A stretch of 64,000 bases of DNA, taken from Ignavibacteriota bacterium. Its GTDB lineage: Bacteria > Bacteroidota > Ignavibacteria > UBA10030 > UBA6906. Numbering within the stretch: the first letter of the stretch is position 1; each line of letters begins with the position of its first letter. Position numbers: made by a program. Of this stretch, positions 1 through 6,000 are shown one piece after another. Location of the stretch: assembly GCA_963811705.1 (NCBI GenBank), contig CAWESL010000003.1:57448-121447 (forward strand). Direction: 5' to 3'.

Positions 1-3000
1 CGAACCCCATACCTCCGCCTTCCAGGAGAACCGATTGGTCGGCACACCAGGTGTAAAGTTGTTGATCTGCTGTGCAATCAGCGCAAGCTTCTCCCGCACG
101 CCATCGCTGTTCCCGTTGGGAGAACTTGCAGCCGGAATGCTGTCGATAACTACCTTGCCTCCCGGCACCGTCTCCACGCTGAGCGCGATCGGGAGCGCAA
201 CAGCAAGGCCGGTGGCGTCCAGTCCATCCAGCGTTATCGAGTTCACAGCGCTTGCATTTGCATTGGCAAATGCGTTGAACTGCGCAAGCGTCACCATGGT
301 GGCGAACCCCGTCGGAGCCGGCCGGCAGACGGCAAAGCGCGACACTTCAATGCCGCCCTGCGCCGTGCCGAGCATGAGCGGCACGGCAAGGTCCTTGGAT
401 CCACCGGCCGGGCGGATGAAGACGTCGCCCGCACCACCCGAGGTAATCTGCACCCTGTTGCCGGAAGGTGCTCCGGCAACAAACGTCACTGCAACGGAAG
501 TCGCGGCCATCCCCTGCGCTACGAACGTATTGTTGATCTGCGTTGTGATAGCGGCCGCCGTCGCCAAGACACCGGTCAAGTCGATGCCGATGTACCGACT
601 GCCATCGACGCTGATCTCGAATTGATTCCTGGTACCGAGAAGAGTTGCCAGCGCTGCCGCAGACATGGCGCGTCCGCTCAGCGAGAAGCCGGCTGCAGAC
701 GGAGCAACGCCGAGATCCACGGCGTCAACCAGCTTGGAATTCTGGGTCAGGAAATCCTGCGCATAGGCCGGAGAGTTCGGATCCATGCTCAGGCCCGACC
801 ACGTTTCGATGTCCTTCTTGACGCGTTGTCCCGAGGAGTCAAGTTCCCAGCGGAACAGGTTCAGGTTGAACGTCACTTCCGGCTGGGCGCCGGCATAGGT
901 TACATACGCACGAATGTCGTTTCCTGCAACCCCGGCGTCCTTTGCCGAGAGTTTGAGCGTCGCCGTGCCCGCTTCATTCTGAAGCGTGAGCGCCGACTGG
1001 ACCGCACCGCTGGCAATCCTCATCACATAGCAGTCGGTTCCGCCGTTCAGAAAGAACAGCTTCACGTAGCGGACCAGATCGCCCCCGGCCGGGTCTTCTC
1101 CGTACGTGCGCGCATAGTCCGCGTAGCTGGCACACCGCACGGGACGGTTGATCGGTCCTTTCTTGGCAGTGCCGAGGAACATTCCGATGGAAGTGCCGAC
1201 GCCGACGATGGTTCGGACTCCGCTCGGGACTTCCTGCACGTAAACGCCAGGATAACTAACCTGAACAGGCATGATTCATCTCTCCATCCTTAGTGAGTGT
1301 CCGGTAGAAACCCGATGTGCGCTTGCCGGCTGATCCGTCCTCAGCCGCCAGGCCGCGAAGCCAAAGCGATGGTCTTCAGGATTTCATGTTCTGCACCAGC
1401 GCATCGATTTCTGACGCCCGCGAGGGATTCAGGAAGTACCAGTGCTCGACGACGTCTCCTGACTCATCCTGGAGATTGCGCTCCTTGAGAAGTCCCCGTT
1501 CCACGAGCCTTGTGACAATTCCCTCCACCTCTTTCACGTTCGCCTCGATCCTTTGCCTCAGGACCCAGAAGCGCGCTATCCCTTCCAGCGTATCCAGTCC
1601 GGCTGGATTATCCCGCAAGTGCTTGAGAATGGCGGCAGTCAGTTCCTGGTCATCAAATGGAGACATATGTGTGGAGTTCGACGATTCGCTATGTGGAATG
1701 GCGCTGTTCACGTGCCGTGCCAACGCTGTGGGGGAAGAACGTGGCGAAAGAAGCGTGTAGGTGGCGTTCGTGACGTGACGGGTGGAGCCGCTGTGTTGGA
1801 TTTAGCATAGTACGACCCGGCGGCGAGACGAAGAGGCACAAGCATTGCGATTTTGCCGAAAAAGGGTGGAGGACTTCTGCACACGAGGAGGATGCAAACC
1901 TCCTACCTAGCGCGGCTTGGCGTCTGCCTGAAGAGCGGAACGGGTGAGATTGTGCCTGCGCATGATCTCCCAGAATGCCCGGCGGTGTTTCCCGGCGCAC
2001 TCGGCAGCCCGCGTTATGTTCCCGCCGCAGAGGCGGAGGAGGTTGGTCACATATTCGATTTCGAATCGAGTCACAACTTCTTCTTTGGCCTGGTCGAACC
2101 GTAGCGGCGTGGGATTGCCGGAGGGCGGCAGAGTCCCGTGGGAGAGGCCAAAATCAATATCTCCCGCACCGAGTACCTGCGACGTGGCATGGACGACGGC
2201 CTTGTGGATCACGTTCTCGAGTTGCCGGACGTTGCCCGGCCAATCATACGCGCTCAGCCGCTGAAGGGCGCCGGGCGACAGCGTCACAAGCGATTTCCCG
2301 TACGACGAGCAGTACCGGGCGATGAGGTGATTGGCCAGCAGCGGAATGTCCTCCACACGCTCCCGAAGCGGAGGGAGCTTGAGTGCGAGCACTTCGAGCC
2401 GGAAATAGACATCCTGACGAAACGTCTTCTGTCGTACGTGATCGAGCAGGTCCGCGTTCGTCGCAGCAATGATACGGACGTCGGCTTTGACAGGTCTGCC
2501 GCCTCCAAGCGGTGTGTACTCATTCCCCTGCAGGAATCGGAGGAGCTTTGTCTGATTGTTCAAGCTGAGTGATTCGACGTCGTCAAGGAACAGCGTCCCC
2601 CCTTCCGCTTGTTGGATCAGCCCTGTGTGGCGGGCGCGTGCGTCCGTGTAGGCCCCTTGCTCATGGCCAAACAACTCATTGACGAAGAGCTCATCCGGAA
2701 TGGCGCCGCAATTCAAAGGGAGAAACGGTCTGGATGAGCGTAAGCTGGTGTAGTGAATCGCCCGAGCGCTCATGTCTTTCCCCGTCCCTGTTTCGCCTGT
2801 TATCAGCACGGTGGCGTCCACTGACGCAAGAACTCTGATCTCGCTCAGGACGCAGTTGAAAAGCGGACTTGCCCCAATCAAATCCAGGAGCCCGACTTCG
2901 AGCATTAGATTATCGGTCGCACGTGCAGTAGCGGGCCGCGCCGATGCGGGCTTCTTCGACGTAATGAGCTGCATGCGGGCCGCAACATCCCCAGGTTGGA

Positions 3001-6000
3001 AGGGATACGACAGGAAGTTCTCGAAGCCGGCGACGAGGAGGTCAAGGCAGTGGGTAGGCTGGCGGAATAGGTTGACAAACAGGAACGACACCTCGGGAGA
3101 ATGCGGACGAATCTTGGCAAGCACGGCCGACAGCACTTGATGGTCGCGTCCCACAATCACCGCAAGGGAGCCACGGGAAAGCTCTATAGGAGGGAAACCG
3201 TCAAGAGGCACATGGTGCAAGGTCGCAGAGCACCATTCCTCGCGCTCCAGCAGGGAGACCAATTCCGCTGCTGTCTCGAAGGAGCCGTCAACCGCCAAGA
3301 CATAGACACGAAGCGGCAGCATAGTGTCTTCCTGGGTGTATGTCAAAAAACGTTCGAAGAAGGCGTGATCCCTTCTTCGAAGGATATGCCGCGGACTTCA
3401 AGGTAGTCGTTGCTTCGTTACGAAGGGCACGAGACCTTGATTGCTCGCGCCCAATCCTTTCCTGAAACGGTCGCGTGCTGAGACAGCGTGAACCAATGGC
3501 TGGTTTCCGGCTCCCGGAGATGCAGGGATCCTCAATCCGTGCAGGATTGATAATTCTTTCTCGCAGTTGCAGCTCAATACTGCTCTATCACCGCGGACTC
3601 AGACAGCACATACCTCGCCGACAAGAAACGTCGGTCACCATTCTCCCCGCGCAGATTCGTCCTGACTGCAAGGGCAGCAGCTAAGGGTATCAGGTAAAAC
3701 ACAGATCGCTCGATTGCCTTTGTCGAACAGGCGTTGACAGACGCCACGCACGACAACGAGGGGGAAGAGACCAGAAATCATCGGTCCCTGAGGTCTCGTG
3801 CAGACGGAACTCGCAACCCGGGATGAAAGTACTCCACGGTCCTTCGACCTGCGAACTCTCGCGAAATATTAACAACTATAGAAACAAAAGTCAAGCTGAC
3901 GCATTGGGAAGACCCCCATTTCTACGATTGCTGGAATTCGTGAGAATTTCGTCTTGAACTCGTGCCGACCGGATGGACTTGGAAGTGGGTTAGCGAGGCA
4001 GTCAAACGTCAGGCATCAAAGGTGGGGAATCGCAGCGTGTGCTGGGCAACCAAATTGACCATGATTGGCCATTGTCACTCGTGTTTGCTTTGCGGGAAAA
4101 ACGTCTTCACGTATGCGGCAACATACCGGATCTCGTCCTTCTTCAGCGTCCACCCGTAAGGCGGCATCAAGGGAGACTTGTTGACACTCCGCCCACCCCC
4201 CATGATCGTTTCAACCGTCTGTTGATCCCCGAGGGCGTTCATGTACGTCGAATCAGTAAAATCCCTCGGCCGTGGATCGAGGTTGTAAGCGTTGAATCCA
4301 TCCCCTTTTCCTCCTTCCCCATGGCACACCATGCAGTACTCACGGTAAAGATATCTTCCCTGCCGTTGTTCATACGTCAGGACAACCTCGGGCTGAACGA
4401 CCGCAATCGTACTGGTCGAGTCGGCCCTGTGTAGACTGTCGCTTGCCGCTTCCGGCTTCGGAGGACCGGGATTCTTTGCTGAGCAACCGGCAAACAGGAT
4501 AAGGAGAACGAGTGATTTCTTTGCGCTCATTGTCGATCACCTGGTTAGGTCGGACTATTTCAAACTCATGAGGTAAGCCGTCAGAGCATCAGCGTCTGCG
4601 TCCGACAAGTTGTTATTGGGCTCAAGAGTCGCCGGCCTGAACGCTTGTGGGTCCTTCAGCCAATGGAACACCCAACCCGGTTTGAGCCGCGCGCTGACTT
4701 TATCGAGCGGCGGTCCGACGTACCCGCCGTTGCCGCCGATCTGATGACACGACTGGCATGCGTACCTCTCGTAATACAGCCCTTTCCCTCTCCCCACCGT
4801 AACAACATCGGAGGGCACTGTGCGATCGAGGCTGTCGGCGATAAACACCTTCTCCATGTAGTCAACGATCGTTTGTATCTCCTTGTCCCCGAGGAAGAGG
4901 TTGGGCATCCGCGCGGTGAGCGTGGGCCTGAGCGAGTATGGGACCTTGAAATAGCCCTCGATCCATTTCGATTGCGCCTGACTTGCCTCAAGACTCAGAT
5001 CCGTGGCGATCAGGTGCCCGCGCCCGTTCATCGTATGACATCCCAGACAGGCGAGATCATCCACGAGTTTTCCAAAGTCGCCCTGCGGCTCATACGTGCT
5101 TGGCGGCTGTGCATGCACAATGAACTCCTCCGGGATCCTCTCGCTTGTATTGCCGAGCAGTGCCACGGTAATTGCTTGTGCCTGTTCTGCGGTCAACTCG
5201 TAGCGGGGCATTCGCAGCCCCGCTGCAAACACGCGAGGATTCAGCAGCTTTGCGTCGAGATAGGCGGGGAGCGTCTGGTCAATGCCCGACGGCCCGAATT
5301 CTATCTCATAAATATTCTTGCTTCCGATCGTGTTCAAGTCCGGCCCCATTTCCTCTTCGCTTGGCGCGGCGGAGAGAATGTGGCACCCCTTACAATTGTA
5401 TTTGTTGAAGAGTGCGAGCCCCTTCTCGTAGTACGCCGGATCCGGCGTGTGCTGCGAGGCCGAGTCTTTGTCGAAGTCGACAAATTCGCTCTCCATATAG
5501 GCCACGAGGCTCACGAGCTGGTCCTCCGTGAACCGGAACCGCGGCATCCGGACACCGGGCAGAATCCGTTTGGGGTTCTTCACATAATTGTACAACCATT
5601 GTTCACTGACTTTGCTCGCTACTTTCCCCAGCTCTGTCGCCCCCTCCCCTCCTCTGCCATTCACCACATGACAGCTGATGCATCGGGCCTCCCGGAACAG
5701 GGTGGAGCCGAGATTGGCCAGCTTCGCCTTCTGCGCATCCGTCGACGAAACGAGCTGAGGAGGCAATGGCTCGAGCGTCGCACCTCCGGCCAGGGATTTG
5801 AAAGACAGAAGAAAATCCGCCAGAGTGTTCGCCTCGTCATCGGTAAGAAGAAAATTCGGCATCCGCGTCCCGGGGAAATAGCCTTTGGGATTTTTCAGCC
5901 AGCTCACCAACCAGGTTCGATCGACCATGGACCCGATGCCATCCAGTCCCGGCACCCACTGCTTCTGATACCCCTCAAGCTTATGGCATGCCATGCAGTT

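Follow-up and report, generated by a model that had tools for sequence, protein, structure and literature searches.

We analysed a stretch of 64,000 nucleotides (nt) from the genome of an Ignavibacteriota bacterium (GenBank assembly GCA_963811705.1, contig CAWESL010000003.1, positions 57,448 to 121,447), hereafter the window, and focused on the gene module at its left edge, in which the start of a contractile-tail sheath gene is preceded by a putative regulator of the sigma-54 type. All genes within 1..3346 lie on the minus strand; the module starts at about position 3350 and runs off the left window edge, and its right-hand neighbours are ordinary chromosome. The features assigned to the module, in the direction of reading, are as follows.

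3353..3381, minus strand: terminator-like hairpin with T-run directly upstream of the regulator gene, closing the upstream cytochrome cluster and marking the right-hand border of the module
1907..3322, minus strand: sigma-54 enhancer-binding protein (EBP) of 471 amino acids (aa), assigned from Pfam, motifs, identity to P0125, and AlphaFold2 (AF2) and Foldseek results
1865..1906, minus strand: conserved block 3′ of the EBP stop codon, with the palindrome AGGAGG-N7-CCTCCT (1904..1886) followed by GTGTGCAGAAGTCCTCCACC (alignment A2)
1707..1722, minus strand: putative sigma-54-type promoter TGGCAC-GGCAC-GTGAA, from pattern search, cassette alignment and a family-wide signal
1376..1666 including the stop codon, minus strand: open reading frame (ORF) of 96 aa predicted to encode a winged-helix (PadR/MarR-like) protein, from identity to P0121, AF2 and Foldseek
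1327..1347, minus strand: hairpin CGGCTGA-N7-TCAGCCG in the spacer that separates the sheath gene from the small ORF, present in the minimum-free-energy and centroid folds and possibly an attenuator or processing site
1280..1291, minus strand: ribosome-binding site AAGGATGGAGAG of the sheath gene, read directly; AAGGAGG is kept here in relatives (alignment A1)
1..1272, minus strand: 5′ part of the sheath gene, coding for residues 1-424 of a protein expected to have ~766-772, from translation, PHROG, contractile injection system (CIS) sheaths in the PDB, and homologues

A previous interpretation made from the DNA without database searches (the sequence-only reading) had described the module as a sheath gene and an adjoining activator. 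The EBP gene does lie upstream of the sheath gene on the same strand, but the 96-aa ORF (1666..1376) between the two and the sigma-54-type promoter (1722..1707) had been overlooked. The spacers measure 240 nt from the EBP stop codon to the small ORF and 103 nt from the small ORF to the sheath gene. With a G+C content of 0.56-0.61, against 0.569 +/- 0.021 for the window, the module shows no clear sign of recent transfer in its base composition. Rfam and tRNA scans returned no Rfam match and no tRNA gene in the window, and the larger ORFs of the window, tested on its right side, matched no phage family.

Translation of the minus strand from 1272 to 1 gives 424 stop-free codons that begin with MPVQVSYPGVYVQEVPSG and are still open at the window edge, and the ATG at 1272 follows a good ribosome-binding site. 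The fragment obtained no match in Pfam or NCBIfam, because both Pfam sheath domains sit past the window edge, as judged from the closest relative (L002, from an Acidobacteria gp4 metagenome-assembled genome (MAG), sheath 80% identical), in which Phage_sheath_1 and Phage_sheath_1C occupy residues 489-755 of 766. The fragment is matched by PHROG tail-sheath families (phrog_23, E 1.5e-15) and by the solved CIS sheaths 9ezm (Halogeometricum borinquense Cis2, E 1.4e-18), 8bky and 8bl4 (both Streptomyces coelicolor Cis2, E 1.3e-15 and 6e-13), and more weakly by Afp2 (E 1.3e-4) and Pvc2 (E 4.9e-4). All five structures align to residues 6-183, and the conserved N-terminal sheath segment (..PGVY..E..., part of the sheath handshake domain) is present. 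Relatives that are 68-80% identical, from Acidobacteriota MAGs and metagenome contigs, are 692-772 aa long and carry both Pfam domains; 80% was also the top identity in a scan of species-representative genomes with the sheath. The window thus holds a genuine sheath start, as the sequence-only reading had proposed, with ~90 conserved N-terminal residues and the greater part of an insertion of ~400 residues.

That reading had further taken the length of the sheath as a mark of an extracellular contractile injection system (eCIS), which does not hold, since Afp2 and Pvc2 have 354-355 aa and T4 gp18 has 659 aa, and length does not separate the two groups. Sequence relationship is more informative. 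A full-length relative with 70% identity matched CIS sheaths at E 1e-56 to 1e-14, as against ~1e-5 for T4 gp18. Only 11 of 50,697 phage genomes gave a match, all of them from Gordonia phages and confined to residues 8-124 at 34-35% identity, and no sheath relative was confirmed among the 2.9 million viral contigs of IMG/VR. On this basis the sheath is assigned to the CIS clade, far from phage sheaths. The sequence-only reading had also considered that a stop just outside the window might truncate the gene. The only other readable contig with an identical 96-aa ORF, the Logan contig ERR11594405 (5.3 kb), could serve as a proxy through its gene list, in which the EBP and the 96-aa ORF are followed by a sheath of 772 aa with both Pfam domains and, 25 nt on, by the start of the next gene; a truncation just beyond the edge is therefore not indicated.

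The likely start codon of the EBP gene is the ATG at 3322 rather than the TTG at 3346, and the resulting 471-aa protein is identical to P0125. It carries Sigma54_activat (E 8.7e-61) and AAA_lid_14 (E 1.9e-23) domains, and its C-terminal 97 aa matched HTH_8 at E 0.001, below the Pfam cut-off. The predicted domain order is a receiver-like region at 1 to ~125, the AAA+ domain at ~148-314, the AAA lid, and a Fis-type helix-turn-helix (HTH) at ~425-465. Both the Walker A (GETGTGK at 176) and Walker B (LFLDD at 244) motifs are intact, and in the HTH region the pattern GGNITRAA..AGK.RR.FW is kept among relatives, with helices modelled at 436-456. The sigma-54 contact loop reads GAYTDA at 223-228 (window ~2654-2637), the canonical form being GAFTGA; this variant is kept in the orthologues, and the G, A, T and final A of the loop are invariant in 13 relatives. 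In Foldseek, the AAA+ domain superposes on those of NtrC1, FleQ and FlrC with template-modelling (TM) scores of ~0.9 (target-normalised). The protein is accordingly classed by its sequence as an NtrC-family bacterial EBP with AAA+ machinery and a Fis-type HTH.

The N-terminal region had been described in the sequence-only reading as lacking a receiver domain, a statement that is right about phosphorylation and wrong about the fold. Pfam Response_reg gave no match to the EBP; however, the profile of this region built from ten orthologues aligned to the receiver profile in hhalign with a probability of 97.3% (E 1.9e-11). The AF2 model (mean predicted local distance difference test (pLDDT) score 82) contains an N-terminal beta/alpha alternation at pLDDT ~90 with a loop in place of helix 2, and the best Foldseek matches of the whole protein are two-domain receiver+AAA+ structures, namely NtrC1 (1ny5), NtrX, NtrC4, FleQ, LuxO and VpsR, with ~400 columns aligned to the receiver+AAA+ structures 1ny5, 3dzd and 5ep0. 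In an alignment with CheY, the equivalents of its D57/T87/K109 are R/N/Y. The N-terminal domain is thus predicted to be a receiver fold devoid of the phospho-acceptor residues, that is, a pseudo-receiver. For comparison, the other EBP of the window, part of a canonical NtrC-type pair at 13257-17370 (minus strand) in which a receiver-bearing EBP is combined with a dCache-HAMP-PAS histidine kinase of 890 aa, matched Response_reg at E 5e-31; the presence of this pair indicates that the genome uses sigma-54.

The 96-aa ORF starts with MSPFDDQELTAAILKHL at the ATG at 1666 and is identical to the database protein P0121; a mechanical ORF call gives 115 aa from a TTG. Its AF2 model (pLDDT 81) has the topology H-H-H-b-b-H (H, helix; b, strand) and superposes on PadR-like and MarR-like factors with Foldseek TM scores of ~0.75. 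No Pfam family covers it, and 40 members of the family gave only marginal winged-helix matches. A profile of the small ORF retrieved 1,804 representative clusters, nearly all of them stand-alone proteins of 75-150 aa, and homologues occupy the same position in L002-L007, L016, L027-L029, L032, L034 and L035. According to the models, the protein belongs to an unannotated family of small winged-helix (PadR/MarR-like) proteins.

The sigma-54-type site of the window, TGGCACGGCACGTGAA (1722..1707), ends 40 nt before the ATG of the small ORF; its -24 element is perfect and its -12 element reads TGA instead of TGC, and an overlapping register shifted by 5 nt, CGGCACGTGAACAGCG (1717..1702), retains GG-N10-GC. 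Sites were scored out of 20 against the consensus TGGCACG-N4-TTGCW. When ten loci were compared, a sigma-54-like site 25-64 nt ahead of the small ORF ranked first or second in every one, and in five of them the score is one expected by chance in 0.5% of 270-nt stretches. Across the five cassettes of the window's own lineage (the window and four related loci), TGGCA-N7-TG is invariant. For the small-ORF family in metagenomes, sites of at least 18/20 occur within 120 nt in 36 of 78 loci, compared with a background of 0.5% per 270 nt, and several of these sites are perfect, such as TGGCACGTGGATTGCA. Several -12 elements of the window's lineage are non-canonical (GTGA, GTGC, TTGT), alongside the GAYTDA loop of its EBPs, and loop and promoter may possibly co-vary. 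A further sigma-54-like match, AGGCACAAGCATTGCG at 1834-1849 on the plus strand, points toward the 3′ end of the EBP gene and away from the sheath gene; two mismatches are present, and chance probably accounts for it.

The block at 1865..1906 could represent the terminator stem of the EBP gene, an upstream activator site, or both; its columns are invariant in alignment A2, and similar GGACAAA-N4-5-ATCCNCC repeats occur in L035. In several relatives (L002 at ~9350-9480, L003 at ~9430-9540, L004 and L006), three TGCGG-N7-8-CCGCA palindromes lie ~60-190 nt upstream of the promoter and are probably the activator sites of the EBP type found there. The same palindrome was considered as an activator site for the window and rejected, as it is absent from the window, whose EBP lineage shares another block. 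As for the hairpin CGGCTGA-N7-TCAGCCG, the fold of the 103-nt spacer that holds it is not significant (z -1.6) and the hairpin has no T-run.

What lies beyond the left edge was approached through five relatives with 70-80% identical sheaths, with Pfam annotation for L002, L001, P0002 and P0003 and ORF sizes only for L003. In all five, the sheath gene is followed by a 168-aa gp19-type tube gene, a T4_baseplate-like gene of ~255-266 aa and one gene of 131-293 aa; then come a Pvc16_N cap and an Afp15-type winged-helix and AAA+ ATPase, the latter split into two adjacent genes in L001. Further on, a 76-79-aa ORF and eCIS_core (DUF4157) proteins were found, the DUF4157 proteins carrying a fused OmpA or Ntox14 toxin part (the latter ~2,200 aa), and L001 has a Phage_GPD spike gene. 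The Pvc16 cap and the Afp15-like ATPase recur wherever the downstream DNA of a relative is long enough (L001, L002, P0002, P0003, L027, L029 and L035). Within 10 kb on either side, the four Pfam-annotated relatives contain no capsid, portal, terminase or integrase gene. A type VI secretion system (T6SS) was also considered and ruled out, since the sheath is a single Phage_sheath_1-type protein, not TssB/TssC, and the operons of the close sheath relatives contain no Tss genes, these having turned up solely behind more distant copies of the cassette. Gene content of the kind seen in the relatives is the basis on which eCIS are called (PMC6899500, PMC8213781), the Pvc16 cap, the Afp15-like ATPase and large DUF4157 toxins being genomic hallmarks (PMC8213781). 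Judged by this content, the locus is very likely of the eCIS type, and the segment 3322..1 probably contains the regulatory head of an eCIS-type operon together with its first structural gene, the remainder extending to the left. Of the two possibilities named in the sequence-only reading, an eCIS or a prophage tail module, the CIS-clade sheath and the eCIS-type relatives free of head genes favour the former as a class of gene content, which need not imply an extracellular particle.

The regulatory part of the module is conserved far beyond this genome. L002, L005, L006 and L007 (Terriglobia), L016 (Nitrospirota) and L012 (Desulfobacterales) each have an EBP homologue directly upstream in the same orientation. 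Each of the four full-length EBP orthologues, which are 57-64% identical and have the same pseudo-receiver, is followed by an ORF of ~94-109 aa, and these ORFs (in L027, L029, L032 and L034) are homologous to the small ORF of the window. Three of the four (P0129, P0127 and P0126) are then followed by eCIS genes, and the fourth contig ends too early. The gene order differs between the two loci that extend far enough: ATPase, CxxCxxCC, cap, a 401-aa sheath, two tubes, CIS_tube and spike in L027, and cap, a 288-aa ORF, a 641-aa sheath and tube in L029; in L034 a cap gene was found. A more distant EBP (P0143 in L035, 42% identical) fits this pattern, and its locus has two pairs of sheath and tube genes. 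We also sampled 80 metagenome loci of the small-ORF family, which are partly redundant, so that their counts are not independent; where 1.5 kb or more of upstream sequence was available (35 loci), an EBP AAA+ domain immediately precedes the small ORF on the same strand in 30.

The similarity values of the individual genes run in different directions. For the window sheath, identity reaches 80% with L002 and 68% with L006, against only ~31-33% with L027 and L029 (first 110-140 residues). The EBP of the window is 57-64% identical over its full length to those of L027, L029 and L034, against 48% to that of L002 (AAA+ and HTH only), and its small ORF is 45-53% identical to those of L027, L029 and L034 versus 29% to those of L002 and L006. 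The EBP, the promoter and the small ORF therefore appear to form a conserved cassette that moves independently of the structural genes, and the different histories of regulator and structural genes suggest that the switch has been swapped between weapon operons. In L005 (9042-10000), ~1 kb of extra A+T-rich DNA separates the small ORF from the sheath gene, which implies that cassette and operon are physically separable. Another variant was observed in L031 (11791-12819), where a 50%-identical EBP (P0131) is followed by a shorter EBP (342 aa, HTH_8) and three ORFs without Pfam matches, with no recognisable CIS genes.

The operons behind the cassette are of several kinds. CIS hallmarks occur in 9 of the 19 metagenome loci with at least 5 kb of downstream sequence; elsewhere the Pfam annotation identified a T6SS (L038, 4916-10367, with FHA, TssK, TssL and TssM), a Tad/Flp pilus (L100, 1397-8167), a subtilase (L063, 709-2019) and an M28 peptidase (L067, 1856-4189), and the idea of a CIS-specific cassette was rejected on these grounds. 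Likewise, a 49%-identical EBP on a contig of JGI 3300075153 precedes a 95-aa ORF, placed as the small ORF by its position, and then a T6SS cluster. The EBP thus appears to be the local switch of whichever operon comes after it, about half of the sampled operons being contractile injection systems. The proposal of the sequence-only reading that the EBP is a dedicated local regulator gains from this conserved synteny and from the sigma-54 promoter conserved in position.

The gene identities and domain content, the conserved synteny and the conserved position of the promoter are direct observations, and the following sequence of events is proposed from them. The EBP gene would be transcribed alone, the terminator-like hairpin parting it from the upstream cytochrome cluster. 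The EBP would bind upstream of the promoter at 1722..1707, and ATP hydrolysis would open the complex of the sigma-54 holoenzyme there. The transcript would start ~30 nt before the 96-aa gene, continue into the sheath gene and, beyond the window, into predicted genes for the tube, the Pvc16-like cap, the Afp15-like AAA+ ATPase, a DUF4157-type toxin and the baseplate and spike. Because the receiver fold of the EBP lacks the phospho-acceptor Asp as well as the Thr and Lys, control would probably be exerted by a partner protein or ligand and not by a histidine kinase. The winged-helix protein, always encoded first in the activated operon, would be the best candidate for such a partner or for a feedback regulator; its place at the head of an EBP-activated transcript, together with an EBP devoid of phosphorylation input, suggests a co-regulator or feedback element. 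In its broadest form, the model holds that a self-contained, exchangeable cassette is set before eCIS, T6SS, Tad pili and secreted proteases in soil bacteria (Acidobacteriota, Nitrospirota, Desulfobacterota and others), and that the winged-helix protein is an unrecognised EBP partner or feedback regulator that replaces the phosphorylation input; this wider claim is tentative, and the balance tilts somewhat against it.

Several observations weigh against the interpretation of the module as an EBP-controlled eCIS-type operon. The contact loop GAYTDA departs from GAFTGA. The promoter site of the window, with its -12 TGA, scores 16/20, which chance would give in ~15% of 270-nt stretches, and the sigma-54 pattern is not enriched across the window (26 found, 28.7 expected); the promoter call in the window therefore rests on positional conservation and not on the site alone. 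An upstream activator site could not be assigned confidently, and for the gene content to the left of the window relatives stand in. In L003 and L004, closely similar sheath operons keep the promoter and small ORF with no EBP nearby, and in L001, whose sheath is 74% identical, a GerE-type regulator stands in place of the EBP. Moreover, the cassette also precedes T6SS, Tad-pilus and peptidase operons and is thus not specific to CIS, and the redundancy among the 80 metagenome loci means that the counts overstate their independence.

Three other explanations have to be set against this interpretation. The EBP and its promoter might serve the small winged-helix gene only, with a separate promoter for the sheath gene inside the 103-nt spacer, or else the cassette might have decayed in this genome. 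The spacer with its 7-bp hairpin ahead of the sheath gene, the absence of the conserved C from the -12 element of the window and the ~1 kb insert of L005 would all fit such an arrangement; yet the spacer yielded no promoter-like site, its hairpin is without a T-run in a fold that is not significant, and CIS genes stand behind the small ORF on the same strand in many unrelated contigs. The intact EBP and small-ORF frames, and the small-ORF protein recurring unchanged on a second contig, speak against decay, and we regard this explanation as improbable. Less probable still is an ordinary myovirus-type prophage or R-type tailocin with the EBP as an unrelated chromosomal neighbour. The sheath fold is common to phages, PHROG tail-sheath families and a few Gordonia phages (residues 8-124) do match, and relatives stand in for the genome's own left flank; against this, the closest relatives combine the Pvc16 cap, the Afp15-like ATPase and DUF4157 toxins with the lack of capsid, portal and terminase genes within 10 kb, the close relative examined prefers CIS sheaths (E 1e-56 to 1e-14) to T4 gp18 (~1e-5), and no relative emerged from 2.9 million viral contigs. 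The window is also free of tRNA genes and of phage-family matches in its larger ORFs, and the order EBP, small ORF, sheath recurs in several phyla, all of which makes a prophage very unlikely.

The third explanation accepts the eCIS-like cluster and concerns the mode of action, namely that the machine is retained and fires from inside the cell, like the cytoplasmic CIS of Streptomyces, or from the membrane, like the haloarchaeal 'T6SS-like' CIS. The cytoplasmic CIS of Streptomyces coelicolor and the cell-bound CIS of Halogeometricum borinquense are not released as free particles (PMC10066040, PMC11566945), and it is their sheaths (9ezm, 8bky and 8bl4) that match best, ahead of Afp2 and Pvc2. 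The order of sheath then tube is shared with the haloarchaeal cis2-cis1, a DUF4157 protein of the relatives is fused to a peptidoglycan-binding OmpA domain, and the same regulatory cassette precedes true T6SS clusters. However, similarity between sheath sequences is no predictor of the mode of action, the Afp15-like ATPase, the Pvc16 cap and the large DUF4157 toxins are the very hallmarks by which eCIS are called (PMC8213781), and no membrane-anchor gene was identified. A retained machine is thus unlikely on balance, though far from negligible, and an EBP-controlled operon of the eCIS type is the interpretation preferred here.

To the right of the module, the genes are those of an ordinary chromosome, with some features of their own. 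Directly upstream, a respiratory cluster at 4075-10466 (minus strand) encodes a 658-aa flavoprotein with 4Fe-4S domains, a Rieske protein, a split cytochrome b, a 692-aa multihaem cytochrome c and a small cytochrome c, and by sequence resembles a bc-type complex, with an unusual subunit rich in haem. At 33201-42470 (minus strand), an ORF of 3,089 aa with two GH94 supersandwich stretches and GH94 catalytic and glucoamylase-like domains resembles, in its predicted domains, a cyclic beta-1,2-glucan synthase, and adjoins a PMT_2 glycosyltransferase gene. A P-type cation ATPase with a C-terminal DUF2934 is encoded at 57665-60778 (minus strand), and a double-domain KaiC homologue lies at the right window edge (62245-63990, minus strand). 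Parts of ABC transporters, G6PD and 6PGD are also found on this side.

The injection machine itself is of a known kind; its sigma-54 regulatory head has not previously been described for eCIS. Published eCIS regulators comprise RfaH-type, GerE/LuxR (adjoining 25.8% of loci) and BTAD proteins (PMC8213781, PMC12961389). Full-text searches found no literature linking sigma-54 or EBPs to eCIS, bar one supplementary-table line: in Geller et al., Sigma54_activat is listed there with 49 genes, an odds ratio of 1.59, p 0.04, four phyla and the label 'Shell', and neither 'sigma' nor 'Sigma54' occurs in the main text (PMC8213781). Two examples of that study, from Pelobacter and Leptothrix, have an EBP followed by a gene of ~70 aa (PMC8213781). 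The natural triggers of eCIS, which are being developed as programmable protein-delivery particles, are almost unknown. A sigma-54 and EBP switch would provide the tight, all-or-none, signal-dependent control already known for T6SS, and a cassette before eCIS-type operons in abundant, mostly uncultured soil phyla could offer a handle for inducing silent clusters, through expression of the EBP or removal of its pseudo-receiver; an unannotated small protein family is at the same time flagged as a likely co-regulator.

Compared with Afp of Serratia entomophila and PVC of Photorhabdus, the locus shares a sheath N-terminus that matches Afp2 and Pvc2, and the operons of its relatives share the gp19-type tube, Pvc16_N cap, Afp15-like winged-helix ATPase, DUF4157 proteins and VgrG-like spike. 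It differs in having one sheath of ~770 aa with a ~400-residue insertion, in contrast to the three sheath genes (350-450 aa) of Afp and PVC, in the order seen in the relatives (sheath first, then tube, cap and ATPase before the spike), and in its regulator, a sigma-54 EBP. The Cis2 sheaths of Streptomyces and Halogeometricum are the best solved matches (the fragment at E 1e-18 to 1e-15, the 70%-identical relative at 1e-56 to 1e-55), and in the Halogeometricum CIS the tube gene also directly follows the sheath gene; those sheaths are shorter, however (534-574 aa), their hosts are an actinobacterium and an archaeon, and neither machine is released, whereas the present system is known from genes alone.

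On the regulatory side, the nearest parallels are the EBPs of T6SS. VasH of Vibrio cholerae is a sigma-54 activator encoded inside a T6SS cluster. Similarly, Sfa2 of the Pseudomonas aeruginosa H2-T6SS is a cluster-encoded EBP that acts with RpoN to switch the T6SS on (PMC5813230). As with Sfa2 and VasH, the EBP gene of the window adjoins a contractile machine, and relatives of this EBP front T6SS clusters; unlike them, it has an eCIS-type target, lies outside and upstream of the operon, carries a pseudo-receiver and is always paired with a small winged-helix gene as the first behind the promoter, and no specific orthology is claimed. The GerE/LuxR regulator of eCIS described by Geller et al. 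(2021) is comparable in standing directly upstream, and a GerE gene takes that place in L001, but it belongs to another protein family with another mode of activation. The predicted pseudo-receiver has counterparts as well. PspF, FleQ and VpsR are EBPs that are not switched by phosphorylation, FleQ and VpsR having degenerate receivers, and in the Psp system PspA, the first product of a sigma-54 operon, feeds back on the EBP. FleQ and VpsR are among the best structural matches of the window EBP, and a PspA-like role is proposed for the small ORF, although its product is a predicted winged-helix protein unrelated to PspA and its interaction with the EBP is suggested by analogy.

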